Assembly: GCA_964447515.1 (NCBI GenBank)
Contig: CAYUSS010000005.1
Location: forward strand, 1-62,507
Direction of reading: 5' to 3'
DNA: 62,507 nucleotides
Source: an uncultured Candidatus Saccharibacteria bacterium
Lineage (GTDB): Bacteria; Patescibacteriota; Minisyncoccia; Minisyncoccales; GWA2-38-27
The notes under the pieces are model-generated. The model had not been told where the DNA came from, ran no database searches, and was given only the letters and a program-made list of their open reading frames with translations. The translations under genes were made by a program, and so were the position numbers. This document shows, piece after piece, positions 13,873-61,235 of this stretch; the first letter of the stretch is position 1, and each line of letters starts with the position of its first letter.

Positions 13873-14391
13873 CTACTGACATCCCTGGCACATTCCAATA
13901 GTAATGCCACTGTAGTTAAAATAATGACCATCACAAGCTGTCACGCCTGGACTAGTTATATCCGGTTTTTCCAATTTATAAACCAACATATACCATTGCT
14001 GGGAACAACCATAACCCAAGGAGAAATAGCAATAATTATATTTGCCGCTCCCAGCCCAACCAGTTGTATCGTTGATTGGGTCCTTGGGAAGAGTAACTTC
14101 ATTGCTGAATTTGCTTTGGAGGATATTCCAGCTAGCGTCTCCACTATTGCTCCAGCCACCATTTGGAGAACTCGCTCCCCCTGAAGCAGGATATTCTTCG
14201 TTCTCCGCGTAATACACCTCTAATGCCGTCATTATTTGTCTTATTTCTGCTTTTCTTCTCGCATCTCTGGCTTTTTCTCTTGCCCCCTTTAAACCAACCA
14301 AAACAATGGAAGCCAAAAGACCGATAATGGCAATAACTACTAAAAGTTCGATAAGGGTAAACGATTTTTGTTTCTGCCTAAATTTTTGCAC
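13873..14391 (-). CDS. type IV pilin / GspG-like protein
   Basis: KS|FTLIELLVVIAIIG, ARDARRKAE, LPKDP. Confidence 0.9.
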   Translation of the reverse strand: MQKFRQKQKSFTLIELLVVIAIIGLLASIVLVGLKGAREKARDARRKAEIRQIMTALEVYYAENEEYPASGGASSPNGGWSNSGDASWNILQSKFSNEVTLPKDPINDTTGWAGSGKYNYCYFSLGYGCSQQWYMLVYKLEKPDITSPGVTACDGHYFNYSGITIGMCQGCQ

Positions 14392-23024: not shown

Positions 23025-23047
23025 TGTTCAAGGTCGGGTCTTGAACA
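23025..23047. repeat. hairpin element providing the eno stop (family D)
   Basis: TGTTCAAGGTCGGGTCTTGAACA, identical at 26171-26192; encodes FKTRP* on the minus strand. Confidence 0.85.
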
Positions 23048-24296
23048 TTTCTTGTTCTATTCTTAAAAGCCGATTATACTTAGCTACCCTTTCCCCCCTT
23101 GCCGGCGCTCCTGATTTAATAAAATCAGCTCCGATGCCAACTGCTAAATCCGAAATAAAATCATCACAAGTATCTCCTGAACGATGAGAAACTATGATTT
23201 TCCATTTAAAAGATTTAGCTAATTTTGCTGCCTTAAGGGTCTCAGTAATAGTTCCAATTTGATTTGGTTTTAAAATAAGTCCGGAACAGGCTTTTTTATC
23301 TTGGGCTTGTTTTATTCTTTCAATATTAGTAGTTAAAAGGTCATCTCCGACAATAGTTATTTTCTCTCCCAACTTTTTAGTAATTTCCTGAAACCCTTGC
23401 CAATCTTCTTCTGAAAAGGGATCTTCTAAAAAAATAATTGGATAATTTTTTACAAGGTCTTTATAAAAAGCTAAAAGCCCTTGTTTGGTAAAAACTGCTC
23501 CCTCTAATTGGTATTTTTTATCTTTGTAAAATTGAGTCGCTGCGCAGTCCAAACCAATTTTTATTTTATTTTGATAATTGGCTTTTTTAACTGCCTTAAT
23601 TATTAAATCCAGTGCTTGTTTGGTTTGTTTAATTGGAGGAGCAAATCCCCCTTCATCTCCTACATTGGTTGCCTCTCTCCCTAAAAATTTTCTTAAAATA
23701 TCTTTTAAGATATGATATATTTCTTTCCCTGCTTGTAAATTTTCTGAAAAAGATTTTTGTTCAGGAACAATCATAAATTCCTGAAGAGCCAATTTATTTC
23801 CGGCATGAATTCCTCCTTCAATTATGTTAAAACAGGGAATCGGCAAGCTCCACGAGACCCGGCCTCGTAACGAGGCCGGGTCTCGTAACTCAAAAATATA
23901 TTTCCCCAAAGGTATACATTTGGCAACGGCTCCGGCTCGGCAAGTTGCTATTGAAACGGCTAAAATTGCATTAGCTCCCAAATTTGATTTATCTTTTGTT
24001 CCATCTAATTCAATCATTAATTGGTCAATTTCTTTTTGTTTTGTCGGGTCTTTGCCTTTAAGTTTGGGAGCAATAATTTCGTTAACGTTTTTAATTGCTT
24101 TTGAAACCCCTTTTCCGCAATATCTTTTTCCGCCGTCTCTCAACTCCTTTGCCTCATATTTTCCTTTTGAAGCGCCCGAAGGAACCGAAGCCCTAAAAAT
24201 ACCTAAATTGGTTTCTAATTCGGCTTCAACTGTCGGCTCTCCTCTGGAGTCCAAAATCTCCCTGGCTTTTATTGATTTGATTTTAGAACTTTTCAT
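23028..24296 (-). CDS. eno: enolase carrying an internal palindrome-derived insertion and a repeat-derived C-terminus
   Basis: EILDSRG, VPSGAS, VGDEGGFAP, GDDL, SHRSGDT, ERVAKYNRLLRIE. Confidence 0.97.
   Translation of the reverse strand: MKSSKIKSIKAREILDSRGEPTVEAELETNLGIFRASVPSGASKGKYEAKELRDGGKRYCGKGVSKAIKNVNEIIAPKLKGKDPTKQKEIDQLMIELDGTKDKSNLGANAILAVSIATCRAGAVAKCIPLGKYIFELRDPASLRGRVSWSLPIPCFNIIEGGIHAGNKLALQEFMIVPEQKSFSENLQAGKEIYHILKDILRKFLGREATNVGDEGGFAPPIKQTKQALDLIIKAVKKANYQNKIKIGLDCAATQFYKDKKYQLEGAVFTKQGLLAFYKDLVKNYPIIFLEDPFSEEDWQGFQEITKKLGEKITIVGDDLLTTNIERIKQAQDKKACSGLILKPNQIGTITETLKAAKLAKSFKWKIIVSHRSGDTCDDFISDLAVGIGADFIKSGAPARGERVAKYNRLLRIEQEMFKTRP
23852..23886. repeat. 35-bp palindrome in-frame in enolase
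   Basis: ACGAGACCCGGCCTCG-TAA-CGAGGCCGGGTCTCGT; peptide RDPASLRGRVS. Confidence 0.9.
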
Positions 24297-24324
24297 TCCA
24301 AAATAAGATTAAGTTTATTAATTT

Positions 24325-24852
24325 TTATTGTTTTTCAAACCCACCAGCAACCCAATCAAATTCACTCTGCCAATTCCGGCTCGGGCAACTCCAGCCAGGA
24401 CTGTCGGGATGAGGCCTACCACTACTTTCCATGCCACGAACACCTAAAACGAAAAAAGGACCCTTGGCCGAATCGCAACCGGCATTGCCGGCAGGATATC
24501 TATAATAATTATATCCATAACAACCTGTTCCTGAACCGTCTTTTGGATCAGTAGGAGTTCCCCCTGGAAACAACCCTTCTGTTGCTAAAGCACCAATAAA
24601 AGGATCCCCCCCACATGGTCCTTGATCCCAGCCATCGCAACAGCTATCCCCAGAAATATTAGGATACCTTCCATATTTATCGTGATATATCCGAAGAGCT
24701 GTTAGTATTTGATTCATATCATGTAATCTTACAGCATCTCTTGCCCTTTCTCTTGCTCCCTTTAAACTAACCAAAACAATAGAAGCTAAAAGACCTATAA
24801 TGGCAATGACTACTAAAAGTTCGATTAGGGTGAATGATTTATTATGTTTCAT
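24325..24852 (-). CDS. type IV pilin / GspG-like protein
   Basis: KS|FTLIELLVVIAIIG, ARDAVRLHD, PTDP, Cys-rich tail. Confidence 0.9.
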   Translation of the reverse strand: MKHNKSFTLIELLVVIAIIGLLASIVLVSLKGARERARDAVRLHDMNQILTALRIYHDKYGRYPNISGDSCCDGWDQGPCGGDPFIGALATEGLFPGGTPTDPKDGSGTGCYGYNYYRYPAGNAGCDSAKGPFFVLGVRGMESSGRPHPDSPGWSCPSRNWQSEFDWVAGGFEKQ

Positions 24853-24883
24853 CTTTTTTATGTTTTATGTTTCACAACCTTTT

Positions 24884-24941: not shown

Positions 24942-24955
24942 TTACAGGGTAAAAT

Positions 24956-25972
24956 TTATTTTTGTTTTTGAATATATCCATAAGCGGCTAAGGCAGCTTT
25001 GGCTCCTTCACCGCAGGCAGTGATAATTTGCTTGTATTGACCAATATTTACATCGCCTACCGCAAATAGTCCTGGAGTTTTGGTTTGACAGGTTTCAAAC
25101 TCAACTTTTATTTCGTCTTTTTCATTAAATTCAACCAAACCCTTAACAAATGCGGTTGCCGGCTGGCTTCCAATTTCCACAAAAACACCCTCAATAGATA
25201 AGGTTTTTTCTTCTTTAGTTTTCCGAGATTGATAAACCATTGATTCTACAAACTTTTTGCCTTTAATTTCTTTCAGAGCAGCATTTGTTATTATTTCTGC
25301 TTTTTTAGTTTTCTTTATAATTTCCTGGTTTGTTTCATCAGCGCTAACTCGGGGACCATATTCTAAAATATAAATTTTTTTAACATAATTTGACAAAAAT
25401 ATCGCTGATTCAAAACCGGCGTTTCCTCCTCCAATAACTGCCACTGTTTTGTCAGCAAATAACACTCCGTCACATATGCTGCAATAACTCACGCCCTTTC
25501 CGATAAATTCTTCTTCACCAGGAACCTCTAAGGGCCGAGGGTCGGCTCCTGAAGCTACAATTATTGCTTTTGCCTGAAATTCTTTTTTATTTTTAGTAGA
25601 AACTAAAAAATCATTGTTTGTTTTTTTAACCCCGTTAAATAATTTCGCCTTCGGCGAAATTCCCGCTTTACGGGATTTAACAGGGTAAATTTTTTTTACT
25701 TCATCAATTTTAATTTCAACTTGCCCGCCCAAGTTTTTCTCCGAAAAACTTGGGCGGGCAAACTTTTTCAAATGGTTTTCAAATTTTTGAATAAGTTCTT
25801 GGCCTGAAATTTTTTCAAATCCAGGATAATTTTCAATAGCAACAGCTTTTTTTACTACCTGACCGCCAAAACTTTTGGTGATTAAAAGAGTATTTAATTT
25901 TTGTCTGGCAGCATAAATTCCAGCTGTAATTCCGGCCGGACCACCACCAATAATTATAAGGTCATAAATCAT
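24956..25972 (-). CDS. trxB: thioredoxin-disulfide reductase with two in-frame palindrome insertions
   Basis: IIGGGPAG, GKGVSYCSICD, VIGGGNAG, GLFAVGDV. Confidence 0.93.
   Translation of the reverse strand: MIYDLIIIGGGPAGITAGIYAARQKLNTLLITKSFGGQVVKKAVAIENYPGFEKISGQELIQKFENHLKKFARPSFSEKNLGGQVEIKIDEVKKIYPVKSRKAGISPKAKLFNGVKKTNNDFLVSTKNKKEFQAKAIIVASGADPRPLEVPGEEEFIGKGVSYCSICDGVLFADKTVAVIGGGNAGFESAIFLSNYVKKIYILEYGPRVSADETNQEIIKKTKKAEIITNAALKEIKGKKFVESMVYQSRKTKEEKTLSIEGVFVEIGSQPATAFVKGLVEFNEKDEIKVEFETCQTKTPGLFAVGDVNIGQYKQIITACGEGAKAALAAYGYIQKQK
25629..25689. repeat. family C element (TIR ACCCYGTTARAT...ATYTAACRGGGT) in-frame in trxB
   Basis: Outer stem plus two inner hairpins; near-identical to 30722-30775 in ftsZ; both encode GISPKAKLFN. 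Confidence 0.9.
25721..25761. repeat. family A palindrome in-frame in trxB
   Basis: TTGCCCGCCCAAGTTTTTC-TCC-GAAAAACTTGGGCGGGCAA; peptide ARPSFSEKNLGGQ. Confidence 0.92.
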
Positions 25973-27049: not shown

Positions 27050-27209
27050 AAATTGTGAATAAGCGCGAGGCAACAAGTCTCAAAGCAAACTTCGGAGGCC
27101 TGCCGGCATGGTCTGCCGCCGAAGGCGGCAGCGACAGGTCGAGAAATTAGACCCCAAAATCTCGCTGGGATTTTGAGGGTCGGTGATTTGAGACTTCATT
27201 GCCGAGCGA

Positions 27210-28085
27210 TTACAAGGTTTTTAAAAATTTTCTTAATTCCGGACCTATTTGGGGATGTTTTAATGAAAGATAAAGATGAGATTTTAACCATCCAAGCTTA
27301 TTTCCACATTCAAGCCATTTCCCTTCAAACTCATATCCATAAATTACTTTACCCTCTGTCAGCATTTTATCAAAAACCTCAGCAAGAATGAGCTCTCCTT
27401 TTTTATTAAATTTAGCTTTTTTCAAATAATCAAAGACCTCAGGAGTTAAAATATATTTTCCAACAATAGCCAAATCAGAGGGAGCTTGTTCTAAAGAGGG
27501 TTTTTCTACAATTTTTTTAATTTTATAAAAACGGTTAGCAATTTTTTCCACACCAACCACCCCATAGAAAGGAATTCTCTCTTTGGGTAAACGATAAAGA
27601 GCAATAACCGGTTTCTGACAGGTTCTAAAAACTTTTTTTAATTGCAAAAGGCAAGGAGTCTTTGAATCTACAATATCATCTGTGAATAAACAAGCCACCG
27701 GTTCTTCATTCAAAAGTTTTGCTGTCTGTAAAATAGCATGTCCGTCTCCTAAAGATTTTTTTTGGAAAATATAAGAAAAAGAAAGAGCCTTAAAAAAATC
27801 TTCTGATTTTTTAAGTTCTGCCAAAAGGGTTCCTTTTTTTCTTTCTTTTAAGAGCTTCTCCAATTTAAGAGAAGGTTTTAAATAATCTGAAACTATCTTT
27901 TTATTTTCTGGCTTGAGAACAAAAATTATCTCGCTAATACCCGAATTTTTGGCTTCAGCGATAATATATTGCATCATCGGTAAATCTACTAACGGCCAAA
28001 GCTCTTTTGGTACAATTTTTGATAGAGGCAAAAATCTTGTCCCCAATCCGCCAATAGGAATAATGGCTTTTTTAACTTCGTTCAT
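27210..28085 (-). CDS. galU: UTP-glucose-1-phosphate uridylyltransferase-like
   Basis: KAIIPIGGLGTRFLP, PKELWP.VD.P, LGDGHAI, IVEKP, GKYILTP. Confidence 0.8.
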   Translation of the reverse strand: MNEVKKAIIPIGGLGTRFLPLSKIVPKELWPLVDLPMMQYIIAEAKNSGISEIIFVLKPENKKIVSDYLKPSLKLEKLLKERKKGTLLAELKKSEDFFKALSFSYIFQKKSLGDGHAILQTAKLLNEEPVACLFTDDIVDSKTPCLLQLKKVFRTCQKPVIALYRLPKERIPFYGVVGVEKIANRFYKIKKIVEKPSLEQAPSDLAIVGKYILTPEVFDYLKKAKFNKKGELILAEVFDKMLTEGKVIYGYEFEGKWLECGNKLGWLKSHLYLSLKHPQIGPELRKFLKTL

Positions 28086-28253
28086 ATAAATTTTATTAGA
28101 AATTAGAATTTTCTACTAGTGTAGAAATTGCTTTATTAAATTTAGCCTGTTTTTGGCTGTTCATGGTTTTTGTATTTTCTTTTAGTTTTTTTATTTTGTT
28201 TTTACGAATTTCGTTTATGGTGGACATAGATTTTCCTCTACTTCTATTCTAGC

Positions 28254-28958
28254 TTATTTTATTTTTCTTTTTAAATAATCTTGAGCTTCTTTTTCAAAAT
28301 ATTCTTTTATTTTGTTTGGCTTATAAAATTCTTTTTTGAATATCAAGGGTTTAATCTCATTTAACCTTGCTGCTCCTTCTAAAATTTTACTCACCAATAA
28401 AACTGGGTCTATCTCTACTCCGAATTTCTTCTTGACCCATTTTAAAATTGTAAGAAATTTAATTTTCTTTTTTTTAAAAATACAATAAAGATCAAAAACA
28501 TCTTTTGCTTCGGCTCGTTCAAAAATAGTATGGGTCTTATTGGCTAACATGTCTTCAATTGCATCAATTTTAATATTAAACTCTTTAAGCTTTAATGGTC
28601 TTTTAATCTTGGGAAAAGGATAAAACACGAACTCAATTTTCAAAACTTCTCTATTCTTTTTAAACCAAAATTGGTGACGATTAAATTTTTTTTGTTCTTC
28701 AATTTCTTTAATTTTTAAGCTCTTGGCAATTTTTTTAATCTGACTTAAAAGATAATCATCTGCCAGTAAATCTTTTGATAAAAAATCTAAATCCTGGGAC
28801 TTACGATGGGAAAGATATTGATAAGCAAGGGCAGTTCCACCCGACCAAACAAAATAAGAACCGAGTTTACTCTTCCCAATTTCTTTTAGTGCTTCTTTTT
28901 GAAAAGGGGTTAGAACTTTATCCGGCACCTTTTTATTTTTATTAATAATATTAGTCAT
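28254..28958 (-). CDS. AbiEii/AbiGii-family nucleotidyltransferase toxin
   Basis: SGGTALAYQYLSHRKSQDLDF, ANK, R...KDVFDL. Confidence 0.85.
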   Translation of the reverse strand: MTNIINKNKKVPDKVLTPFQKEALKEIGKSKLGSYFVWSGGTALAYQYLSHRKSQDLDFLSKDLLADDYLLSQIKKIAKSLKIKEIEEQKKFNRHQFWFKKNREVLKIEFVFYPFPKIKRPLKLKEFNIKIDAIEDMLANKTHTIFERAEAKDVFDLYCIFKKKKIKFLTILKWVKKKFGVEIDPVLLVSKILEGAARLNEIKPLIFKKEFYKPNKIKEYFEKEAQDYLKRKIK

Positions 28959-28995
28959 AAACTGTTATAACCCGCATACTAAAAAGGTGCGGGGT

Positions 28996-29208
28996 TTAAC
29001 CATATTTCTTCAAAAAATTTCTAAGAATTTGTTTGAGATAAACATTAATTTTTAATCTGGACAAATACTTCTTTAAGGTTTTTTTATCTAAGACCTCCCA
29101 ATCACCATGTTCAACTTTTCTTTGCAAATACCAAAGCAAAACCCTGGGATTAGATAAATCCAGTTTTTTAACATCGTAATCCCAAATGTAATTTTTGGTA
29201 AGTTTCAT
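28996..29208 (-). CDS. small helical protein, putative antitoxin partner
   Basis: YIWDYD..KLDL motif; immediately upstream of the AbiEii gene. Confidence 0.6.
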   Translation of the reverse strand: MKLTKNYIWDYDVKKLDLSNPRVLLWYLQRKVEHGDWEVLDKKTLKKYLSRLKINVYLKQILRNFLKKYG

Positions 29209-29288
29209 ACTTTTATTTTATCATAATTTTAATCAAAATAAAACACCCTGCCCGCGTGAAACGCGGGTAGGGGATGTTTGAAATCTTA

Positions 29289-29936
29289 TTACTCCAAAAA
29301 GCGAAAAGTGGAAAGCATTTGGTTGGTAATTCTTCCTTGTTCTTGGCTGGGGATATAATCTTCTTGTTCAGATAAATCAAGACTATATGCTTCATGGAGC
29401 GACCACCTCTCAATCAAAAAAGTATTTACTCCTTTTTCTTTAACACAATAATAGAAAATTCCTTCTCCTTCAGCTCCGCTATAATATCTATCCCCTTCTA
29501 TATTTCCAAGATTGAAAGCTTCGGGTTCCTCCCCGTATTTCTGAAAGAAAGACTTTAATTCGTCGCACTGACTTGTATCCTTTTTAAAAGTTATTGAGAT
29601 ATCACCAGCTAAACCTAAATCACTTCCATCTTTTTTGCTGTACATATGGAAGTTTTTTAAGGTGTGTGAGAGAGTAACTTTATTAACATCTAATTGAAAA
29701 ATATCACTTGGATACTTCACTTCAAATCCATATTCTTCGTTTCGATAAATCTCCCAATTAGCGGTTTCGTCTTCTTGGGTAATTTCTCCTTCCGGCGGCT
29801 TAGCTTCCTCTTTTGCTAACCACCCATACTGCCAGACTAAAATTCCTCCAGCTAAGAGAAGACAAATGACAATAATCAGAATTCCTACAGGAGTAGAAAT
29901 TCCCTTATTAAGATTAGTTTGATTTTGATTATTCAT
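29289..29936 (-). CDS. secreted PsbP-like hypothetical protein
   Basis: KGISTPVG signal/TM segment, WEIYRNEEYGFEVKYP, C-terminal QMLSTFRF. Confidence 0.7.
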   Translation of the reverse strand: MNNQNQTNLNKGISTPVGILIIVICLLLAGGILVWQYGWLAKEEAKPPEGEITQEDETANWEIYRNEEYGFEVKYPSDIFQLDVNKVTLSHTLKNFHMYSKKDGSDLGLAGDISITFKKDTSQCDELKSFFQKYGEEPEAFNLGNIEGDRYYSGAEGEGIFYYCVKEKGVNTFLIERWSLHEAYSLDLSEQEDYIPSQEQGRITNQMLSTFRFLE

Positions 29937-30056
29937 AATTGATTTTTATTTCACTAATTATGCCGACCTTTTATAGTGTTTGACTTTCCAAGCCAAACAA
30001 GAAATTGCCTAGGCAAGAAAATTACAACTTTTGTTGTAAAAGTTGAATAATTAAAG

Positions 30057-31871
30057 TTAAAAGCTGGATGATTTTTTGCTGGCTTTGAATTTCTCTCTCC
30101 TGAAAATGGCTGGGGTTTGCCAAATTTTTTCCTTTTCTAATATTTCTTTTTCTTCTTCCTCAACTGCTTTTTTTAGCTGAAGACCTGTTCGTCTAACTTT
30201 TTCGTGCCCCAGCTCTTGGTAATCTAATGGTTTCTCTTTTTCTAATTTACCCCCCACCTTTTCTGCAGAAAAGGTGGGGGGGGTTTTTTCTTCCCCTGGC
30301 TTTTTTAGAATCTTGTTAGGAGTTTGCCCTGTTAGGGGCTTGTCCCCCACTTTCTTAAGTAAAGTGGGGGGTTCGCTTACTTTAGATTTTTTCTCTGCCT
30401 TTGCAACCTTTAACCGGGCTTGTTTTTTCTGACCTCTTAGGGATTTTTCCCCTTTGGGTTTTTTCTTTGGTTTTGGTTTTGGTTTTGTTTTCTTTACCCC
30501 TACGCCAGAACGAGGACTGGCTTTGCCAATTTTCCCGCCAGAGTCGGGTTGTCCTTGTTTGGTCTGGGGGCTTTTTTTAGTTTTACCCCCCACCACTTTT
30601 CCTTGAAAAGTGGTGGGGGGTTTATCTTCCACTACTTTCTCCTTTTGTTGAGAAACAGCACGAGCTTTAGGCTTCTTGGTTCCTAAAATTGGAGACTTCA
30701 CAACCTGAGAAGGTTCTACTATGTTAAATAATTTCGCCTTTGGCGAAATTCCCCCTTTAGGGTATCTAACAGGGTGAACCCTGTTAGATACCCGGCCTTT
30801 CGCAGAATGACTGGGTCTCACTTTAGGGGATTTAACAGGGTAAATCAAAAGCCCCTTTAGACCGCATCCTACAGCCAACAAAGTTATCTTAATTTTATCC
30901 TGAAGTTTTTGATTCTGGTTAATACCGAAAATAATTTTAGCTTTCTTGCTTATTGATTGAGAAATTATTTTTGATATTTGAGAAACCTCTGAAAGTTGGA
31001 GCGCTCTGCCACCGGTTATATTGTATAAAACCCTCTTCGCCCCTTTAGTAGTATAAGGATATAAGGGGCTAGAAATCACTTTTTTAACTGCTTCTTCTTT
31101 GTTGGGTGCTTTAACTTCTATGCTATTCAAATAAGCCAACCTGGCCCTACCGGTTAGGATTGTTTTTAGGTCAGCAAAGTCAATATTAATCAAACCAGGC
31201 AAATAAATCATTTCAATTAATCCTTCTAAATTTCCGGCCAATTTTTGGTTAATAGCAGAAAGAGCATTTTTTAAAGGAGCATTTTTATCAACAATTTGGA
31301 AAATTCTTTCATTAGGAATAACCGAATAGGCATTAAGGTGTGATTTTATTTTTCCAAGAGATTCTCTGGCAATTTCCATCTTTTTTTCTCCCTCAAATTT
31401 AAAGGGCAGAGTAAAAATTCCATAACTAAGACAACTTAAATTTTTAGAAATCTTAGCAAAAACCGGAACAGCACCAGAGCCGGTTCCCCCTCCCAAACAG
31501 GCAACAATAATACAAACATCCTGTTCCTCAAAAAGTTTTTTTATTTTTTCCTTTTCATTTTGGGCAGCCATTTCACCTATTTCTACATTCATCCCGGTGC
31601 CTAAACCCTGAGTTAGGTCTTGACCAAATTGAAATCGTTTCACTTTTTTGGCTACTTTTCTAAGAGCCCGGCTATCAGTATTAGCCGCTACAAAATCTGC
31701 TTTCTTCATTCTGGAGGCAATTTCTGAAACAATTGAACTGCCGCCCCCGCCAACGCCGATTAATCTGATTTTGGTCTTGCGAACCTCCTCTTTTGTTCTA
31801 ACCTTCTTGGTTTTAATAGGTCTTAAAACTTTCTTTTTCCTTTTTTTTATCTTTTGTTTTTTAGTAGTCAT
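30057..31871 (-). CDS. ftsZ: cell division protein FtsZ with very long repeat-built linker
   Basis: IGVGGGG, ANTD, GLGTG, CLGGGTGSGA, PFKFEG, GLINIDFADL, C-terminal QTPAIFRR. Start set at MTTKK. Confidence 0.92.
   Translation of the reverse strand: MTTKKQKIKKRKKKVLRPIKTKKVRTKEEVRKTKIRLIGVGGGGSSIVSEIASRMKKADFVAANTDSRALRKVAKKVKRFQFGQDLTQGLGTGMNVEIGEMAAQNEKEKIKKLFEEQDVCIIVACLGGGTGSGAVPVFAKISKNLSCLSYGIFTLPFKFEGEKKMEIARESLGKIKSHLNAYSVIPNERIFQIVDKNAPLKNALSAINQKLAGNLEGLIEMIYLPGLINIDFADLKTILTGRARLAYLNSIEVKAPNKEEAVKKVISSPLYPYTTKGAKRVLYNITGGRALQLSEVSQISKIISQSISKKAKIIFGINQNQKLQDKIKITLLAVGCGLKGLLIYPVKSPKVRPSHSAKGRVSNRVHPVRYPKGGISPKAKLFNIVEPSQVVKSPILGTKKPKARAVSQQKEKVVEDKPPTTFQGKVVGGKTKKSPQTKQGQPDSGGKIGKASPRSGVGVKKTKPKPKPKKKPKGEKSLRGQKKQARLKVAKAEKKSKVSEPPTLLKKVGDKPLTGQTPNKILKKPGEEKTPPTFSAEKVGGKLEKEKPLDYQELGHEKVRRTGLQLKKAVEEEEKEILEKEKIWQTPAIFRREKFKASKKSSSF
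30250..30844. repeat. cluster of at least five palindromic elements in the ftsZ linker
   Basis: Family B at ~30250-30283, 30344-30370 and 30585-30621; family C at 30722-30775 and 30778-30844. Confidence 0.88.
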
Positions 31872-31975
31872 TATTAGACCTCTCCCTGCGCAATACCAGC
31901 TGGGCATTGTGCAGTGGGTCTTTTATTTTAACTTTTTCTAATTATAAAAACAATAGTCGGTAGATTTAAGGTTCA

Positions 31976-33658
31976 CTATTTAATATCTATATCCACTCCC
32001 CTTTTTTTAAGATAATTAATATAATAAGCAGCCCGGTCAAGATTATCTTGTTCAATGTAATAAGCCGCTAAATTATAACAGGCTTTAATATGCTCAGGAT
32101 TGATTTGGAGAGTTTCCTCCCAAGAATTTTTTGCTTTTTCAAATTCCCCTTTTTTATAATAAAGCAAGCCAAGATTAAAATAAGCATCATCATAAAATGG
32201 ATTAATTTCCAGTTCTTTCTTATACTCAATCTCGGCTTCTTCAAACATATTTTTATTCATATAAATTAATCCTAAATTATTATGAACCATTTCTTCTTGA
32301 GAATTAAGTTCAAGAGATTTTTTATATTCAATTTCCGCCTGGTCTAAACGGCTGTCAAGATAATACATTGCCCCTAAATTCCTATGAGCCAAAGGTGAAT
32401 GAGGAGAATTTTCAGCCGCGTTTTTCCAAAAACTTAATCTGCCTTTGAAATTAAAACAGTGATTAATAGTTAAACCTGCCAGCAAGACCAAAACCAAACC
32501 AGAAATTATTAAAACTTTTCTATTTTTGGGTGGCGGGCGGGTGGCGTCCAAATTCTTGAGCCAGTCAATCTCCGAGGCAATAATAAAAAACCCCAGTATT
32601 GGGAGATATAAGCGGTGCTCTATAAAATCTGCAACAAGTTCTATATTAGGCCTAATAAAAGAAGGCAGCAAAAAAACCAAAAACCAAAAAGCGCCAAACA
32701 AAATATAATTTAGGCGCTTTTGTTTCGAAAAAACCAAAAGCAAAAGCAAAAGCGCTAAACTAACCATACCGTATATAAAAGTAGTATCTTCAATAATAGG
32801 CAAAACCGAAAGATTAAATGGCAAAACAACTTTACCAAACATTTGAAGAGCAGCTGGTAAGTTCTGCCAAACTGACTTTACCATTACAGAAAAAGGCATT
32901 GCCAAAGGGTTTACAAAAGCCCAGCTCCGCATTAAAAACCAAAAAGCAATCACTCCTGCCCAGCCCATTCCAAGTTTTAATTTGTCTTGAGAGAAAATTT
33001 TCTCTTTTTTTATAAGTTGAAGATAAGCCAGGCATAGAAAAACCAAAAACAAAGAAATTTCTTTGGTAAAAAAAGCCAGAGTAAAAAACAAAATATGCCA
33101 GAGATAGTTTTTCCAGTTTTTATGGGGCGGAGGGATGGCGTCGTCTAAAAACTTCAAAAAGAAAATAAAAGCAGCAAGCAAAAACAAGGTCATTAAAGAA
33201 TCATTCCTACCGGGAATCCAAGCCACTGCCTGAGTTAAAACTGGATGAACTACAAAAATTAGACCAAAAAATAAAGCTAATTGCTTTTTATACTTCAGTT
33301 TCAGTAAAACAACAAAAACCAAACAGCTTGCCAAAACATGCAAGATTATATTTGTTAAATGATAAATAAAAGGAGAAGTTCCTGCCCACTGGGCATCTAA
33401 GATTAAAGAAATGGTAAAAATCGGCCGATAATAAGCGTCAGCATAGGAAAGAAAAACATCCTCTTTAAATGTATTAAAGATATTAGAAAGCTCTTTAACA
33501 AAATGAAAGTTATTCAAAATCAGCTCATTGTCGTCCAAATAAGTAAAGCCAAAAAACAAGGTTGGAAGATAGACCAAAAAGCCAATTAAAACAATCCAGA
33601 AATAAGGACGTCGTCCTTCTAAAAAAACTCTTTGAAACCAATTATTTTTTTTGTTCAT
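31976..33658 (-). CDS. GT-C fold + TPR protein (TMTC-like O-mannosyltransferase)
   Basis: YLDD, YYRP, HPVLTQAVAWIPGRND, EHRLYLP, C-terminal TPR repeats. Confidence 0.82.
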   Translation of the reverse strand: MNKKNNWFQRVFLEGRRPYFWIVLIGFLVYLPTLFFGFTYLDDNELILNNFHFVKELSNIFNTFKEDVFLSYADAYYRPIFTISLILDAQWAGTSPFIYHLTNIILHVLASCLVFVVLLKLKYKKQLALFFGLIFVVHPVLTQAVAWIPGRNDSLMTLFLLAAFIFFLKFLDDAIPPPHKNWKNYLWHILFFTLAFFTKEISLFLVFLCLAYLQLIKKEKIFSQDKLKLGMGWAGVIAFWFLMRSWAFVNPLAMPFSVMVKSVWQNLPAALQMFGKVVLPFNLSVLPIIEDTTFIYGMVSLALLLLLLVFSKQKRLNYILFGAFWFLVFLLPSFIRPNIELVADFIEHRLYLPILGFFIIASEIDWLKNLDATRPPPKNRKVLIISGLVLVLLAGLTINHCFNFKGRLSFWKNAAENSPHSPLAHRNLGAMYYLDSRLDQAEIEYKKSLELNSQEEMVHNNLGLIYMNKNMFEEAEIEYKKELEINPFYDDAYFNLGLLYYKKGEFEKAKNSWEETLQINPEHIKACYNLAAYYIEQDNLDRAAYYINYLKKRGVDIDIK

Positions 33659-33694
33659 AAGAGCGTCTAATGTAAGCCCGACAGGACTAAATAT

Positions 33695-35149
33695 TCATTT
33701 TTTTGGTTTTATCCATTTTAGAAAATTAAGTGCGGATAAAAACGATTTCAAAGAATTAACCTCTTTAATAGTTTGAAAAAACATTTTCGGCCGGAAATAA
33801 AATTTGAAATAAGCTTTATCTCTGAGTTTTTTAATTTCTTTGGCAGTCAAATTTTCATTTCTCATTACTGATTTAGTTAAATCAAATTGGGAAAAATTGT
33901 TCATCTTAATCCAATTGTTTTCTTTAGCAATTCTGCCTAATTCGGTTTTAGGGTAAGGTACGACGCAGTAAAATTGAGCATAATTGAGAGAACTCTGACA
34001 AGCCCATTCAATGGTTTTTTTAGCTGTTTTTTTTGTTTCGCCGGGCAGACCAAAAATAAAATGGCCCATTGAATTAATACCAGCTTTTTTAACTAAAGCA
34101 ATGGCTTTTTCAATCTGTTCTAAACTAATATTTTTGTGAGTTAAATCAATAATTTTTTGGTTAAATGATTCAATGCCCAAACTAAGCAAATGGCAACCAG
34201 CTTTTTTCATTTTTTCCAGTAATTGTTTATTCAAAGTATCTACCCGCGAAGCAGTCGCCCAAGTTATTTTTAAATTCCTTTTAATAATTTCATCACAAAT
34301 TTTCTCCCCATAAACCGAATCAATACTAAACGATTCTCCCCAAAAAAGAAAATTTTTGATACGATATTTATTAAGGCATTCTTCTATTTCATTAACAATA
34401 GAATCAACTTCTCGCTTGCGGAATTTTTTTCCGTAATAAAGATTGGCTACGCAAAAACTGCAATTATAGGGACAACCCCTGCCAACACTCAAAAGAGTGA
34501 ACTTTTCTCCATTGGTAGGTAAACAATAAGCCCCGTTATTAAGCAGGTCTCTGGCTGGAAAGGGCAGCTGGTTAATATCATTTTTAGATAAATCCTGAGG
34601 AAGATTAATTTTTATTTCCCCATCTCTGCGATAAACCAAACCGTTTATTTTTTCCAAAGGATTATCATTTTCTAAGGCTTGGCTTAAATTTTTAACCACC
34701 CATTCTGGCTCCCCAACAACAGCAAAGTCTGCTTGATTGAATTCTTTTAAAGACCTTTTTTCCAATAAAGTTGGATAAAGACCGATGATTGCTATTTTGG
34801 CTCGCCCTCCCAAATTTTTGGAGAAAATTTGGGAGGGTGAAGGAAAAGAATTTTTAATTAAACTGACTGTCTCCATATCCCCTTTTATTGAAGGAAAAGC
34901 AGTATTTACTATAATCAGTTCTGGTGAAAATTTTTCAGCCAATTCTAATAAATCTTTATTATTAATTTTCTCGGCAATACAATCGATTAAAAGGATATTA
35001 TACCCGTCCTGTCTTAAAAAAGCGGCTGTATAAGCCAAAGACAAAGGCATCCACAAAGCGGCCCAAGATGATTTCGTCTGCATACATCTCCCCTCTCTGA
35101 TATAATCTTTTTTATTGTAAGCCGGAGGATTAATAATTAATATTTTCAT
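33695..35149 (-). CDS. B12-binding radical SAM protein
   Basis: PLSLAY, GEPE, GRGCPYNCSFC, GIES, FIFGLPGET. Confidence 0.9.
   Translation of the reverse strand: MKILIINPPAYNKKDYIREGRCMQTKSSWAALWMPLSLAYTAAFLRQDGYNILLIDCIAEKINNKDLLELAEKFSPELIIVNTAFPSIKGDMETVSLIKNSFPSPSQIFSKNLGGRAKIAIIGLYPTLLEKRSLKEFNQADFAVVGEPEWVVKNLSQALENDNPLEKINGLVYRRDGEIKINLPQDLSKNDINQLPFPARDLLNNGAYCLPTNGEKFTLLSVGRGCPYNCSFCVANLYYGKKFRKREVDSIVNEIEECLNKYRIKNFLFWGESFSIDSVYGEKICDEIIKRNLKITWATASRVDTLNKQLLEKMKKAGCHLLSLGIESFNQKIIDLTHKNISLEQIEKAIALVKKAGINSMGHFIFGLPGETKKTAKKTIEWACQSSLNYAQFYCVVPYPKTELGRIAKENNWIKMNNFSQFDLTKSVMRNENLTAKEIKKLRDKAYFKFYFRPKMFFQTIKEVNSLKSFLSALNFLKWIKPKK
34803..34839. repeat. family A-type palindrome in-frame in the radical SAM gene
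   Basis: CGCCCTCCCAAATTTT-TGGAG-AAAATTTGGGAGGGTG; peptide PSPSQIFSKNLGGR. Confidence 0.85.
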
Positions 35150-35817: not shown

Positions 35818-35820
35818 AAT

Positions 35821-38800
35821 TTATTGGGCGTAATTACAAATTTCTCTAAAATCACAAAACTTGCACTGCCAGCCAGGATTTGGAGCAAAATCACTCTTTT
35901 CAATTTTTTCAATCTCTAACAATATTTTTTCTTTTTGTTTTTCTTTTTCCTTTTCTTTACCCAAAAAAGAAGTTATCTTCCCTTCTTTTAAATAATAATA
36001 ACCAAGTTTTGTTGGTTTAAGCCCAAAAATCTCTTCAACGGCAATCTGATAAATCAAAAGCTGTTGTTTATCTTCTGAAGATAATTTCTCTTTAAATCTC
36101 CCGGTTTTATAGTCAATAATTCCCACCCCGGTTTTCAATTTATCAATCCTGTCTATTCTGCCCAATAAAATATGTCCTCCCAGCTTTAATTTAAAAGGCA
36201 GTTCCAGAGCAATTTGCTTATTGATTCTTAAAATCTCCGGCGGCTTTTCTTGAAATTTATTGTAAAAATCTTTAAGTATTTTCCTGCCTAATTTATAATA
36301 TCCCTGCTTTTGATTTTGGGATTCATACCATTCATCAATCCATTTTTGCTTATATATCTTAACTAAATCTTCAAAATTAAAACCCTTAACACCCGACGTT
36401 TTCCTCGGCGCCTCTGGCGCCAATTCCTCAACGTCGGGTGTTGAAAGGTCGGGTTTTGTATCAACAAACAAATTGCTCTGGCTAACCCATTTTTGTTCAA
36501 TAACCAATTTCACAAACTGGTATAAGGTATTGTGTATTGTCTTACCAAAAGAGAAAACCGCCTTGCCCCTAATCGGCACTCTAAGAATATGGGCAAATTT
36601 ATATTGTAAAGGGCATTTTTCAAAAGCGGCTAATTGGGAAAATGAAAAATGAGAAGGCAGGATATTCTTAACGCCCTTAATACTCTTAACATCTTCAACA
36701 CCCGACGTTTCCCTTGGCGCCTCTGGCCCGCCTAAATTTTTCTCTGAAAAACTTAGGCGGGCTGGCGTCAATTCCTCAAGGTTGGGTGTTGTAACATCAA
36801 GTTTTTTACCAAAACCCATTTCAATTAAAAATCTTGATGGTTTCTTCTTTCTCAGACCACCGTAATCATCGGCTGAAGTAAAAAATAATTTCTCCTTTGC
36901 TCGAGTCATTGCCACATAACAAAGCCTTCTCTCCTCTTGTAAATGGACATCGCCTTGAGTAATAAGCTCTTTAACTAATTCCCGGGGAATTTCAATCGGT
37001 TCTTTGCGTTCAGTAGTTGGAAATTTTCTGTCTGTTAAATTAACTAAAAATACATATTTGAATTCCAGACCCTTGGCCGAATGAATAGTCATTATTCTGA
37101 CCATATCCGGCCCCTGTTCAGGGTCAAATTCAAGTTTACCCTGCTGTCCTGATTCTATTTCTAAATTTATTTGTTCTATAAAATTTTTAAGGGTTGGGTC
37201 TATTGCCAATTCCTCAAACTCTTTGACTTTTTTATAAAACTGATTGATTAAATCCAAGTCCTGCTTGCCTCCCATCACTTTTTCTTGAAAAGTGGTGGGG
37301 GGTTTACTTTCTTTATCTATCAAATAATTTAAATAACCGGAATCTTTTAAAAAGGCAACCAAAACCTCAGAAACATTTTTCTGGCGCGACAGCTCAGTGT
37401 GTTTCTGAAGTAAACTTAAAAGAAAATTAATTTTATTATGGGTTTTTTGGGAAAGGCCGTAAATTAAAGGAAGCTCCCGGAGGGTCTGGTAAATTGATTT
37501 TGCTTTCCGCCAACTATATTGAGTAATTTTCATTATTTCTTCTGAAGGAATTTCTAAAAATGGCAAATTCAAAATTCTATAAATTGAAGAACCCTCCTCA
37601 TAATTATCTAAAAGTTTAAAATAAGAAATAATATCTAAAATAACCGGCTTGGTATAAAGTCCCCGAGAGGCTAAAAACTGATAAGGAAAACCGGCTCTCT
37701 CTAATGCCCTAATAAATGAGTTGGCTGATTCATTTGTTCTAACTAAAATAGCAAAATCATTAAAATTTGCTTCTTTGTCTTTTTTCAAAATCTCGCTAAT
37801 TTTATTGAGCACTCCCTGGGTCTCCTCCTCTGAATCTTTAAAATGTGAGCACTCAATAAGACCTTTGTCTTTTTTGTCAGCAATCAATTTTTTATTAACT
37901 TTACTAACATATTCAAGCCGATTGGGATTATTGGCTTTGATAAATTTGTAAGATAAATCCAAGATATTTTGAGCAGAACGATAATTTTTAATCAAAGAAA
38001 TTTCTTTCGCCTTGGGAAAATCTTTCCTGAATTGGATAATGTTATTAAAAGAGGCCCCGCGCCATCTATAGATTGCCTGGTCATCGTCAGCCGAGACCGT
38101 AAGATTATTTTTTGGTACGGCTAATATTTTTGCTAATTCATATTGAGCCCAGTTAGTATCCTGAAACTCGTCAATTAAAATATACTTAAATTTTTCTCTG
38201 TACTTTTCCAAAATAAGGGGTCTTTCTTGGAAAAGTTTCAAGCAGTAATTAATTAAGTCGCCAAAATCCAAAAAATTATTTTCCAGAAGCAAATTCTGAT
38301 AAATATGATATGCCTCAGCCACCTCTTTAATTCTTTCTGTTTCCTGATTTTCCGGCAAATCAGTGAGATTAGTTTTTAGCCCTTCGCTATATTTTAAATA
38401 ATCTTCTGGATAAATTCCCTGGTCTTTACAACGGGAAAAATGAGAAATTAAAGCCTGGACAAATTTAGTTGGTCTGCCCAAGGGTTTGTAATAATCAAGC
38501 TTAAATTTATCTAAATTCTGCCTAATCAAAAGCCAAGCGGCAGTTTGGTCTAATAATTTAAAATCAGGAGACAAGCCAATATCCAAAGCATGCTCTTTTA
38601 AAATTCTTTGACAAAAAGAATGAAAAGTAGAAATCCATAAATCCATATAGCCGTAGGGCAAAAGTATATCTACCCGTTCTTCCATTTCTCCGGCCGCTTT
38701 GTCAGTAAAAGTTACTGCTAAAATTTCCTCCGGTTTAGCTTTGTTGCTTTCAATTAAATAAGCAATGCGTTGGGTAATTACTGTTGTTTTGCCGGTGCCG

Positions 38801-38883
38801 GCTCCGGCCACAATTAGAAGCGGTCCCTGTCCATAAGTAACCGCTTGTTTTTGTTCTTTATTTAATTTATTTTGAATATTCAT
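35821..38883 (-). CDS. UvrD/PcrA-family helicase fused to a C-terminal PD-(D/E)xK nuclease
   Basis: AGAGTGKT, IDEFQD, DDDQAIY.WRG, TIHSAKGLEF, EERRLCYVAMTRAK; C-terminal GRIDRID/IIDYKTG and four-Cys motif. Confidence 0.92.
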   Translation of the reverse strand: MNIQNKLNKEQKQAVTYGQGPLLIVAGAGTGKTTVITQRIAYLIESNKAKPEEILAVTFTDKAAGEMEERVDILLPYGYMDLWISTFHSFCQRILKEHALDIGLSPDFKLLDQTAAWLLIRQNLDKFKLDYYKPLGRPTKFVQALISHFSRCKDQGIYPEDYLKYSEGLKTNLTDLPENQETERIKEVAEAYHIYQNLLLENNFLDFGDLINYCLKLFQERPLILEKYREKFKYILIDEFQDTNWAQYELAKILAVPKNNLTVSADDDQAIYRWRGASFNNIIQFRKDFPKAKEISLIKNYRSAQNILDLSYKFIKANNPNRLEYVSKVNKKLIADKKDKGLIECSHFKDSEEETQGVLNKISEILKKDKEANFNDFAILVRTNESANSFIRALERAGFPYQFLASRGLYTKPVILDIISYFKLLDNYEEGSSIYRILNLPFLEIPSEEIMKITQYSWRKAKSIYQTLRELPLIYGLSQKTHNKINFLLSLLQKHTELSRQKNVSEVLVAFLKDSGYLNYLIDKESKPPTTFQEKVMGGKQDLDLINQFYKKVKEFEELAIDPTLKNFIEQINLEIESGQQGKLEFDPEQGPDMVRIMTIHSAKGLEFKYVFLVNLTDRKFPTTERKEPIEIPRELVKELITQGDVHLQEERRLCYVAMTRAKEKLFFTSADDYGGLRKKKPSRFLIEMGFGKKLDVTTPNLEELTPARLSFSEKNLGGPEAPRETSGVEDVKSIKGVKNILPSHFSFSQLAAFEKCPLQYKFAHILRVPIRGKAVFSFGKTIHNTLYQFVKLVIEQKWVSQSNLFVDTKPDLSTPDVEELAPEAPRKTSGVKGFNFEDLVKIYKQKWIDEWYESQNQKQGYYKLGRKILKDFYNKFQEKPPEILRINKQIALELPFKLKLGGHILLGRIDRIDKLKTGVGIIDYKTGRFKEKLSSEDKQQLLIYQIAVEEIFGLKPTKLGYYYLKEGKITSFLGKEKEKEKQKEKILLEIEKIEKSDFAPNPGWQCKFCDFREICNYAQ
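36388..36789. repeat. two family E elements in UvrD; the second carries a nested 39-bp family A insertion
   Basis: AACACCCGACGTT...AACGTCGGGTGTT at ~36388-36442; copy at ~36696-36789 interrupted by CCGCCTAAATTTTTCTCTGAAAAACTTAGGCGGGCTGGC. Confidence 0.88.
37268..37302. repeat. family B palindrome in-frame in UvrD
   Basis: CCTCCCATCACTTTTTCTTGAAAAGTGGTGGGGGG; peptide PPTTFQEKVMGG versus PPTTFQGKVVGG in FtsZ. Confidence 0.88.
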
Positions 38884-39456: not shown

Positions 39457-39672
39457 CTCTCTTCCTTTTTGTTAATGTGCCAATTTTATTTTACCCCGTT
39501 AGAAATTTAAAATCAATGCAATTCATTTGTAATAAAATAAAAAAACCAAAAAATTTCTAACGGGGTTTGGCTGTCCCTGTTTAACTTACGATGTTAAACA
39601 TTTTAAAAATTGATTGGTTTTAAAAATCAGAGTTGACACCATTTTTTTATTTACCAGAAATTAAAAAAATTT

Positions 39673-42365: not shown

Positions 42366-42521
42366 ATTTTTTTACCCTGTTAAATACTGTTTTACGGCAA
42401 TTTTGCCAAAGACAAAATTATTTAACAAGGTGAATTATTAATAATAAATCTCTTTTTGCCCTTTCTTAAATTTTACCACAATTAAAAATCCAAGGCAATC
42501 TGCTCGCTGATGAAAAAGGTG

Positions 42522-59517: not shown

Positions 59518-59648
59518 TGAAAATGTAGCCCAATGTTGCAAATCCACCCGTGAGATTTTTAATGGCTTCCGCCTTTGAAGGGGCGGTCTGCCAGAAGCCA
59601 ACCCTCACGGGAAAGCAACTGGGCTACCAGACCGTCCCTTTGAGTTAT

Positions 59649-61235
59649 ATGAAAAATCTTACAAAAGCAGTAATATACTGCCGTGTGTCATCAAGAGAAC
59701 AGGAAGAAACTGGTTATTCTCTCCCAGCTCAAGAGAAGTTTTTGAGGGATTATGCCCAAAAGAATGGCTTTGGAGTTGCTAAAGTTTTTGCGGTATCAGA
59801 ATCAGCTGGCGGGAAAGTGAGACGAAAAATCTTTAACGAGATGATGGATTACATAAGGAAAAACAAGATTGCGATTGTTATTGTAGAAACCACTGACCGC
59901 TTAACAAGAAACTTCGCCGATGTGCCAATAATTGACGCTTGGGTTCTGGAAAACGAAACTCATCAAATTCATTTAGCCAAAGAAGGATGTATATTGCACA
60001 AAAACTCTAAGTCGCACGAATGGTTTATGTGGCGAGTTAAAGTGGCTACTGCCGAATACTATGTAAGACTGCTTTCTGAGAATGTGAAAAAAGGACAGAA
60101 AGAAAAACTTGCACAAGGATGGCTACCAACTAGACCGCCTCTTGGATATAAAACAATCGGCGAAAAAGGACATAAAACCCATATCATAGATGAGGCGAAA
60201 GCTCCAATGGTTAGAAAAATGTTTGAGTTATATTCCACTGGCAATTACTCGCTTAACGCTTTGGTAAAAGTTATGTATCAAGAAGGATTAAGGAATGAGA
60301 ATAATAGAATTGTTGGCAGAAGCAGAATACACGAGTTGCTTTCTGACCCGTTTTATTACGGCGAGAACCGATGGAAAGGAGAGATTTCCGCTGGACAGCA
60401 AGAAATCCTAATCTCTAAGGAGTTATTTGATAAGGTGCAGGAGAAACTTACCCGAAAAATTAACAGTCCTCAATATAAAAAACATTTGCCAGTGTTTAAG
60501 GCAAAGATTAAATGCGAGGAATGCGGCGGAACTATAACTTGGGAAATTCAACGAGGTCATTGGTATGGACATTGCAATCATTACAAAAATTGCTCCCAGA
60601 AAACTTGGTTAAGACAAGAAAAAGCAGAAGAACAACTATTCCCGCTTTTTGACAAAGTAGCACCTAAAAACGAAAGGATTATAAAGTGGCTGGAAAAGGC
60701 ATTAAAAGAAAGCCATACTGGCGAAATTGATTATAACACCAAACAAAGGGAAGAACTTAACAGAATAATCAAAATGGCTGACGAAAGAATGGAAAAAGCA
60801 TACCGAGATAAATTGGATAGCAAAGCTCCTGCAATTCTTTGCGAAAAAATAATAGCTGATTCTGATAAAGAGAAAAAAGATGCCTTAGAATCTCTAAATA
60901 AATTAGGCGAGACCAGAATAAAGTATTACGAAGCTGGCTACGCTATCCACGAGCTCGCTCTGCACGCCAAAGAGATATACCAAAGCGTAAAAGCCAAGAC
61001 AGAAGACAAAAGACTGCTTTTGAGCCAAGTATTTTCGAACTTAAGCCTAAATGAAGGAAATATAAAGCCAAATTACACTCTGGCGTTCGAATTTCTATCA
61101 AAATGGATGCCTTTAGTGAATAATACTTTCGAACAGCCAAAAATAGGGCAAAATAAACGGAAAACGGACGATTTGGCGTCCGTTTGTCCTGAAATGCTCC
61201 GGCGGCAGGATTCGAACCCCTCTCGGTCGCCCTAG
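59649..61235 (+). CDS. large serine recombinase (resolvase + recombinase + Zn ribbon)
   Basis: AVIYCRVSS, YSLPAQ, DRLTRN, PPLGY, CEECG. Start set at MKNL (59649). Confidence 0.93.
   Translation: MKNLTKAVIYCRVSSREQEETGYSLPAQEKFLRDYAQKNGFGVAKVFAVSESAGGKVRRKIFNEMMDYIRKNKIAIVIVETTDRLTRNFADVPIIDAWVLENETHQIHLAKEGCILHKNSKSHEWFMWRVKVATAEYYVRLLSENVKKGQKEKLAQGWLPTRPPLGYKTIGEKGHKTHIIDEAKAPMVRKMFELYSTGNYSLNALVKVMYQEGLRNENNRIVGRSRIHELLSDPFYYGENRWKGEISAGQQEILISKELFDKVQEKLTRKINSPQYKKHLPVFKAKIKCEECGGTITWEIQRGHWYGHCNHYKNCSQKTWLRQEKAEEQLFPLFDKVAPKNERIIKWLEKALKESHTGEIDYNTKQREELNRIIKMADERMEKAYRDKLDSKAPAILCEKIIADSDKEKKDALESLNKLGETRIKYYEAGYAIHELALHAKEIYQSVKAKTEDKRLLLSQVFSNLSLNEGNIKPNYTLAFEFLSKWMPLVNNTFEQPKIGQNKRKTDDLASVCPEMLRRQDSNPSRSP
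61195..61218 (-). other. tRNA 3'-end fragment, putative att core (tRNA-Gln-like)
   Basis: Minus strand GGTTCGAATCCTGCCGCCGGAGCA = T-loop, 3' T-stem, acceptor strand and G73; no 5' half present. Confidence 0.7.

Follow-up and report, generated by a model that had tools for sequence, protein, structure and literature searches.

Probable lengthening of the FtsZ linker of a Candidatus Nealsonbacteria genome by in-frame insertion of tiny palindromic mobile elements

To our knowledge, palindromic elements inserted in frame have been described chiefly in Rickettsia. Indeed, Rickettsia palindromic elements (RPEs) insert in frame into Rickettsia genes (PMC10969869), and the QMITEs of Coxiella occasionally give in-frame insertions or C-terminal extensions of open reading frames (ORFs) (PMC5896051). 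Regarding the division protein FtsZ, published work finds its linker to be disordered and both its length and its sequence to be hypervariable (PMC9586301), and charge patterning within it matters (PMC9586301; bioRxiv 10.1101/2025.11.25.690400), so that linker neutrality should not be assumed. Our literature search returned no paper on palindromic insertions, or insertions of miniature transposable elements with inverted repeats (MITEs), in proteins of the candidate phyla radiation (CPR), nor on the FtsZ of Nealsonbacteria. Here, we describe the ftsZ gene carried by contig CAYUSS010000005.1 (NCBI GenBank assembly GCA_964447515.1), of which positions 1 to 62,507, the whole stretch analyzed, are hereafter called the window. 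Very probably, this is an ordinary, single-copy-type ftsZ of a Candidatus Nealsonbacteria genome, in which two tiny palindromic mobile families, with five copies or more between them, have lengthened the disordered linker through in-frame insertions. The first, family C, is a MITE, non-autonomous and 58-64 bp long, that bears 14-bp terminal inverted repeats and duplicates 2 bp on integrating at T-NN-A. The second, family B, is a GC-ended palindrome measuring 27-41 bp and is lineage-specific.

These elements resemble RPEs in being palindromic families, found in frame in unrelated housekeeping genes of a reduced-genome bacterium and apparently translated as fold-compatible segments (PMC10969869); as with RPEs, copies in both the window and metagenomes are inserted in frame in unrelated ORFs, with a conserved peptide in the predicted translations. 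They differ from RPEs in their size (27-64 bp here against ~100-150 bp), their host phylum (Patescibacteria), the co-occurrence of several unrelated families, the 2-bp duplication made by family C at T-NN-A and their main sink, the FtsZ linker. We would hence speak of an RPE-like process in the sense of "works like" and not of "is a member of", a sequence relation to RPEs not being expected. With QMITE1, QMITE2, Correia, ERIC and BOX elements they share a short, non-autonomous organization, terminal inverted repeats and direct-repeat flanks. However, family C is much shorter than these bacterial MITEs, about one third of its listed copies lie inside long ORFs with nearly all of them preserving the frame, and no cognate insertion sequence was found for it in 1.45 Mb of related DNA. 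Repetitive extragenic palindromic (REP) sequences are extragenic by definition. Family B and the hairpins of the enolase gene and of the linker recall REPs and REPINs as GC-rich palindromes of 20-40 nt, some of them inverted doublets, but all seven family B copies are intragenic, they have no conserved GTAG-type head and no RAYT is encoded in the window. Finally, like the linkers of B. subtilis, E. coli and Caulobacter, the linker studied here is a disordered, length-variable and poorly conserved spacer joining the core to the C-terminal peptide (PMC9586301; bioRxiv 10.1101/2025.11.25.690400); it differs from them in that the mutational source of its length is visible, in its net charge of +41 and in the clade-specific helix that precedes the terminal peptide.

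The gene and the parts of its product are as follows:
30057..31907, minus strand: ftsZ coding sequence, longest ORF of 616 aa
31287..31772, minus strand: Tubulin/FtsZ GTPase domain, aa 46-207 (Pfam PF00091, E = 3e-34)
30867..31100, minus strand: FtsZ_C domain, aa 270-347, end of the folded core (Pfam PF12327, E = 9e-17)
30207..30863, minus strand: variable C-terminal linker, aa 349-567 (from alignment, composition and model)
30096..30206, minus strand: clade-conserved C-terminal helix, aa 568-595, and peptide WQTPAIFRR, aa 596-604 (from alignment and model)

The probable start is M13 (31871), which lines up with the MTAKKQK of relatives and gives a protein of ~604 aa, in good agreement with the FtsZ of ~605 aa, with GTPase core and C-terminal peptide, that had been called from the DNA letters. 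All motifs are present in the translation (GGGTGSG, INIDFAD and WQTPAIFRR), and the GTPase signature together with the FtsZ_C domain places the protein in the FtsZ family, its closest proteins being FtsZ of Patescibacteria with a core identity of up to 82%. In an alignment with eleven relatives, the folded core stops near aa 348 and is followed by a non-alignable stretch and then by a conserved 45-residue C-terminus, EKVRRTGLQLKKAVEEEEKEILEKEKIWQTPAIFRR. The variable linker separates from the core a peptide for membrane anchors (W596-R604) that is invariant or nearly so across 12 relatives. Directly before this peptide stands a conserved charged helix of ~30 residues (the two together spanning aa 568-604), so that the conserved C-terminus of the clade measures ~45 residues and not ~15. 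In the variable linker, K makes up 22% of the residues, P 10.5% and G 10%; its net charge is +41 and its GC content 43%, versus 36% in the core. A shallow AlphaFold model (12 sequences, with a mean predicted local distance difference test score, pLDDT, of 43) assigns no secondary structure to residues 349-576, whose pLDDT stays below 50.

Perfect hairpins with a stem of at least 9 and a loop of at most 8 were sought in the region 30057-30850, and five were found (stem, loop and stem lengths are given):
30250-30281: perfect hairpin, 16+0+16
30344-30370: perfect hairpin, 10+7+10
30585-30621: perfect hairpin, 17+3+17
30730-30750: perfect hairpin, 9+3+9, interior of the second family C copy (C2)
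30760-30793: perfect palindrome, 16+2+16, at the junction, made by the right repeat of C2 lying directly against the left one of the first family C copy (C1)

With a mean of 0.054 in 500 dinucleotide shuffles, none of which gave more than one, a chance origin of the linker palindromes is excluded; over the whole window, 12 hairpins have stems of at least 12 where such shuffles lead one to expect 0.15. The original prediction, which counted at least five palindromic elements in the linker, three of them of family B, is borne out on these points, the family B palindromes being those at 30250-81, 30344-70 and 30585-621. The junction palindrome that it reported is also present, at 30760-30793 instead of 30763-30790, and so are its two family C elements, which stand in the same orientation, in tandem, and not head-to-head.

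A linker of this kind could be an assembly artefact in which repeats were mis-joined, and the unitigs do break exactly at two of the palindromes (30252-79 and 30724-51), as is usual with k-mer assemblers. Yet the window DNA turns up again in many salt-marsh metagenome runs, and Logan contigs from four independent ones tile the linker identically, in the same three pieces with matching overlaps, which makes a misassembly unlikely; the identical protein is found on three contigs, and the ORF stays open through all elements and continues in frame into the conserved C-terminal helix and peptide. We give an artefact almost no credit. Over 30728-30796, sequencing depth is ~10x that of the flanks, indicating that this element is multi-copy.

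The window holds five copies of family C, two of them in ftsZ:
30778..30841: copy C1, 64 bp, in ftsZ; terminal repeats ACCCTGTTAGAT / ATTTAACAGGGT; read as YPVKSPKVRPSHSAKGRVSNRV
30718..30775: copy C2, 58 bp, in ftsZ; left repeat decayed; read as HPVRYPKGGISPKAKLFNIV
25629..25686: copy in trxB (24956..25972); 60-nt in-frame insertion
39493..39566: intergenic copy, 74 bp
42374..42431: intergenic copy, 58 bp

The ends ACCCYGTTARAKAT stand at both sides of all five window copies and of the copies found in relatives, and the interiors vary. The copies (52-77 bp, five in 62.5 kb) are dispersed and have no transposase coding capacity. Over 53 nt (30723-30775 / 25634-25686), C2 shares 91% identity with the trxB copy, and the latter is a clean insertion that is missing from the trxB orthologues of two relatives, L037 and L042. 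In the ftsZ linkers of relatives, a 63-nt family C copy is found in L041 and not in the near-identical L042, whose empty site reads T-AA-A, the AA standing on both sides of the filled site of L041. A metagenome scan using both ends of the element returned at least 129 copies, and the counts that follow cover the copies listed. Among these, 42/129 lie inside an ORF of at least 120 aa, and 39 of these 42 have a length of 1 mod 3, which the 2-bp duplication brings to a multiple of three, so that the frame is kept; the remaining 87 are spread over the three length classes (35/30/22; Fisher p = 8e-11). Within genes, the family C copies that persist are hence those whose length plus two is divisible by three. 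The flanks point to the same integration event: among the matches listed, 128/134 have T at -3, 120/134 have A at +3, and the flanking dinucleotides are identical in 72/134 versus 24.8 expected, from which it follows that family C integrates at T-NN-A with a 2-bp duplication. Terminal repeats, target duplication, multi-copy dispersal and presence/absence polymorphism between relatives are all characteristic of MITEs. The element has two open frames, both of which are used (NPVR...SNGV and TPLE...LTGFT), the third containing a stop codon. In metagenomes, its in-frame hosts are housekeeping enzymes and include RNase J, RtcB, UvrA, PPDK, CinA, a glycogen debranching enzyme and a CCA-adding/poly(A) polymerase-type enzyme, where it mostly sits at termini, between Pfam domains or as loop insertions.

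Family B is represented by seven window copies of 27-41 nt, all inside ORFs:
30585..30621: in ftsZ, perfect 17+3+17; read as PPTTFQGKVVGG
30344..30370: in ftsZ, 27 nt, 2 mismatches over the whole palindrome; read as PPTLLKKVGD
30250..30281: in ftsZ, perfect 16+0+16; read as PPTFSAEKVGG
25721..25761: family B-like palindrome in trxB, 36-nt in-frame insertion; read as ARPSFSEKNLGG
37268..37302: in the UvrD/PD-(D/E)XK helicase gene (35821..38883), 39-nt in-frame insertion
36726..36762: family B-like copy between domains of the helicase, nested in an element of another family, D (36697-36791)
34805..34837: B-like palindrome in a radical-SAM/B12-binding gene (33695..35149); read as PSPSQIFSKNLGG

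Both the trxB copy, missing from the orthologues of L037 and L042, and the helicase copy at 37268-302, missing from L037, are clean in-frame insertions, and the aligned position in the ftsZ of relatives L039 and L040 is without the 30250-30281 element. Copies in different genes are closely related, 30589-30624 (ftsZ) matching 37271-37306 (helicase) at 94% and 25723-59 (trxB) matching 36726-62 (helicase) at 89%. The perfect complementarity of ftsZ copies suggests that they are recent, and the helicase copy at 37268-302 has started to decay.

Similar peptides come three times in the linker, and one might thus regard PPTxFxxKVGG and xPV[KR]...[SF]NxV as selected protein motifs, for example binding sites, the DNA palindromy being incidental. 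Selection on peptides does not, however, maintain perfect DNA complementarity over 16-17 bp, and the pattern of peptides conserved without DNA palindromes across diverged orthologues was not seen. Moreover, the same units occur in trxB, the helicase and the radical-SAM enzyme, family C is also present in non-coding DNA and is read in two frames across its hosts (NPVR..SNGV and TPLE..LTGFT), and the frame of family B copies, counted from the palindrome centre, is not the same throughout. Indeed, a single frame shared by 7/7 family B copies had been considered and was dropped when frames measured from the palindrome centre were found to differ; their peptides are similar because of the C-run/T-run/A-run/G-run design of the element. 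We therefore hold it very improbable that the peptides are what is selected. A second alternative, somewhat less remote but still improbable, is that the palindromes are kept as nucleic-acid structures, be they ribosome-pausing or transcript-stabilizing mRNA hairpins or antisense terminators. The linker RNA does fold very stably (-251 kcal/mol versus -190 +/- 7 in shuffles, z = -8.5), and two hairpins on the plus strand (antisense to ftsZ), those of 30250-81 and 30585-621, have terminator-like scores and are followed by T runs, among 13 terminator-like sites versus 3.5 expected. T runs are nonetheless the antisense of lysine codons, so that any K-rich stretch should show them, the same elements are found in unrelated genes and in intergenic DNA, older copies lose their complementarity (e.g., 37268-302 and 30718-31), relatives have linkers without these elements or with other families elsewhere, and there is no Rfam match (none over 24000-43000). 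Insertion of mobile elements remains, in our opinion, the best account of the linker palindromes.

Linker length, taken from the core end to the C-terminal peptide, was compared in 79 close homologues with recognizable landmarks. At 247 aa, the window linker is the longest of them, the median being 129 aa and the 5-95% range 96-203 aa. The five elements supply ~75-78 residues, i.e., ~30% of the linker, and account for about two thirds of its excess over the median; a description of the linker as "assembled from" elements was hence overstated, ~75-78/247 residues coming from the five elements. There is also a small contribution of slippage:
30466..30491: hexamer tandem repeat TTTGGT x4.3, encoding KPKPKPK

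Across 22 ftsZ genes, linker length correlates with the count of GC-rich hairpins plus family C (rho = 0.63, p = 0.002, not corrected for phylogeny). Elements are also concentrated in the linker: of the ~13 in-ORF elements, ~5 fall in its 0.74 kb, against a total coding sequence of 54 kb (Poisson p ~1e-6), a density ~40x that of the rest. As the T-NN-A target is common throughout this AT-rich genome, the simplest reading is that insertions survive where they do little harm. The ~40x density fits tolerance in a disordered region; that the linker is a neutral sink, as an earlier proposal had it, is inferred.

The other half of that proposal, growth of the linker by element insertion, finds support in the clean in-frame insertions of trxB and the helicase, the filled and empty sites in relatives' ftsZ, the family C repeats with their 2-bp duplication, the frame-keeping length bias and the rank of the linker as longest of 79. 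A mechanism may be proposed on this basis. Elements would be moved in trans by enzymes encoded outside the window and would land anywhere, those breaking the frame, bringing a stop or hitting a fold being purged. The survivors would have a net length that is a multiple of three and would lie in loops, interdomain segments or disordered tails, where, as the sequences suggest, they would give short Pro/Gly/Lys/Ser-rich peptides on translation and later be eroded by point mutations. Being long, disordered and tolerant of sequence change, the FtsZ linker would accumulate them. The identity of the transposase and any effect on Z-ring behaviour would, for their part, be matters of inference.

Several observations weigh against this picture. 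No transposase was found in the window, and no cognate insertion sequence was found for family C, distant repeat pairs having been searched in 1.45 Mb of related DNA; the pairs that might have bounded an autonomous partner were rejected as they enclose ordinary genes (MurG, FtsW and others) and no transposase. A pattern search of the same 1.45 Mb found family B in the window alone. Neither is there a clear target duplication for family B, three filled/empty comparisons disagreeing (the nested copy has a repeated CTGGC, and at the helicase or trxB copies nothing clear is seen), and for the ftsZ copies no empty site of high identity was found for comparison, the L039/L040 alignment for 30250-81 being the sole one to hand. 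The shallowness of the AlphaFold model makes for weak evidence of disorder and allows no statement beyond an unstructured linker. Only ~30% of the linker is recognizably element-derived, the rest being K/P-rich low complexity including the KPKPKPK slippage repeat. Finally, the relative L003 has a linker of 251 aa without GC-rich palindromes, made of K-rich low complexity and (NPTD)x8, from which it follows that insertion is not the sole route to a long linker. An equally long, palindrome-free linker in a relative had been named beforehand as an observation that would refute insertion; found in this one relative, it limits the generality of the process and leaves the insertion evidence of the window standing. 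In the window ftsZ, insertion dominates among the visible ways in which the linker grew, and it is one way among others. The L003 gene (9455-11767) itself, from a relative of 28% GC, encodes a 770-aa FtsZ with a K-rich N-terminal extension of several hundred residues and a core end at aa 508, and the peptide ISNAVPVRIV in its linker resembles two abutting, decayed family C ends.

The position of the gene bears on whether it could be a second, divergent FtsZ paralogue whose linker became long through relaxed constraint after duplication. The original prediction had raised this point, there being no ftsA next to the gene and, as we found, none within the 62.5-kb window. However, the order helicase - ftsZ - NTP_transferase - Carb_kinase - trxB - enolase is common to the ftsZ loci of eight relatives, the AddA-like helicase being upstream of ftsZ in L037 and NTP_transferase, Carb_kinase, trxB and enolase downstream in relatives, and ftsA adjoins ftsZ in none of these eight loci. 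By this shared neighbourhood, the window gene is the orthologue of the relatives' division ftsZ, and the absence of ftsA is a trait of the lineage and not the sign of a second copy. The core is 65-82% identical to those of relatives with GTPase motifs and the anchor-binding C-terminal peptide intact, and a scan of species genomes, which groups the window ftsZ with Candidatus Nealsonbacteria, gave one ftsZ locus per assembly, a weak count since the search patterns were specific. The paralogue proposal is thus abandoned as most improbable, and the ordinary division ftsZ is retained. Extra genes alone set the window apart from these loci. Upstream of ftsZ, they encode a PMT/TPR protein and a radical-SAM enzyme. 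Downstream, ftsZ and NTP_transferase, which are adjacent in relatives, are kept apart over 28254-29936 by genes for an AbiEii-type toxin and a PsbP-like secreted protein and by an ORF of 70 aa.

Other palindromic families are found in the ftsZ genes of relatives. A 36-nt GC-rich bulged palindrome encoding PARNASRSEAGG lies inside the FtsZ folded core of L039 and L037, in a core loop between APNK and EEAVKKV, and, as judged from its protein sequence, in that of P0036; this element is also in the linker of L040 and not in that of L039, and it is absent from the window ftsZ. "PTADQPKAG" hairpins occur in the ftsZ of L043 and L044, and a hairpin with an ACCCGGC loop in that of L041 and L042. Altogether, footprints of family C or of PARNA are present in 9/79 close FtsZ homologues, be it in the N-terminal tail, in the linker or in the core loop. 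In L044, a Y1_Tnp gene (IS200/RAYT-like; 6261-6965) stands directly upstream of ftsZ, flanked by the hairpins ACAGAGAACTGTTCTCTGT and GCGGAGGACTGTCCTCCGC; GAGAAC/GTTCTC hairpins like these are present at 5195-5254 of the window. The hairpins flanking this gene belong to a sequence family other than family B, and a tblastn search of the window with the L044 Y1_Tnp gave no match. We consider this transposase beside ftsZ as a lead and not as a link.

Within the window, the helicase gene has two copies of the palindromic family D (36388-36443 and 36697-36791), with ends AACACCCGACGTT and read as TPDVEELAPEAPRKTSGV; the first is uninterrupted and the second holds the nested family B copy, with CTGGC repeated on both sides. 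In the enolase ORF (23028..24296), a perfect 17+1+17 palindrome (23852-23886, ELRDPASLRGRVSW) lies in a segment that differs from the L037 orthologue, and is a doublet of the hairpin ACGAG-ACCCGGC-CTCGT, whose loop is that of the L041/L042 ftsZ-linker hairpin. A 38-nt hairpin-bearing element (23010-23047 / 26156-26193, 95% identical) overlaps the 3' ends of the enolase and Carb_kinase genes, and both proteins consequently end in ...FKTRP followed by the stop; it looks like a repeat supplying the last codons, stop and terminator. A perfect 58-nt intergenic palindrome (24884-24941) is an inverted doublet of a CTGTTGCTATTTGATACCAACAG-like unit, a layout resembling that of REPINs, and a single unit is found at 8894-8920. 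The 107-nt repeat 14261-14367 / 24734-24840 (89% identical) covers the N-terminal parts of ORFs 13873..14391 and 24325..24852, which are probably paralogues. As for mobile-type genes, the window has a large serine recombinase (59550..61235) and a restriction-modification methylase, a fused type IIG/MmeI-like enzyme (50604-53072); together they lie at one window end, which may be an integrated element.

Beyond this locus, we lean, by a narrow margin, towards a broader reading in which CPR bacteria carry families of ultra-short palindromic mobile elements, and essential and housekeeping proteins routinely receive them in frame. A process like that of RPEs would then be at work in a second, unrelated lineage with reduced genomes. 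The proteins affected would include FtsZ (core and tails), TrxB, enolase, the AddA-like helicase, UvrA, RNase J, RtcB and PPDK. In-frame palindromic insertion would thereby be extended to CPR bacteria, with much smaller elements and with the length class within ORFs as the signature of selection. If true, such elements would be a substantial source of the insertions and long disordered tails of CPR proteins, the FtsZ linker being the clearest sink. Their peptide footprints (NPVR...SNGV, TPLE...LTGFT, PPTxFxxKVGG and PARNASRSxAGG) and the assembly breaks that they cause could be masked in the annotation, alignment and modelling of CPR proteins. For FtsZ itself, insertion offers a concrete and checkable mutational mechanism for the long-noted hypervariability of the linker, and the window ftsZ may be seen as an experiment of nature, an ultra-small cell tolerating a linker with a net charge of +41 and roughly double the median length of the clade.

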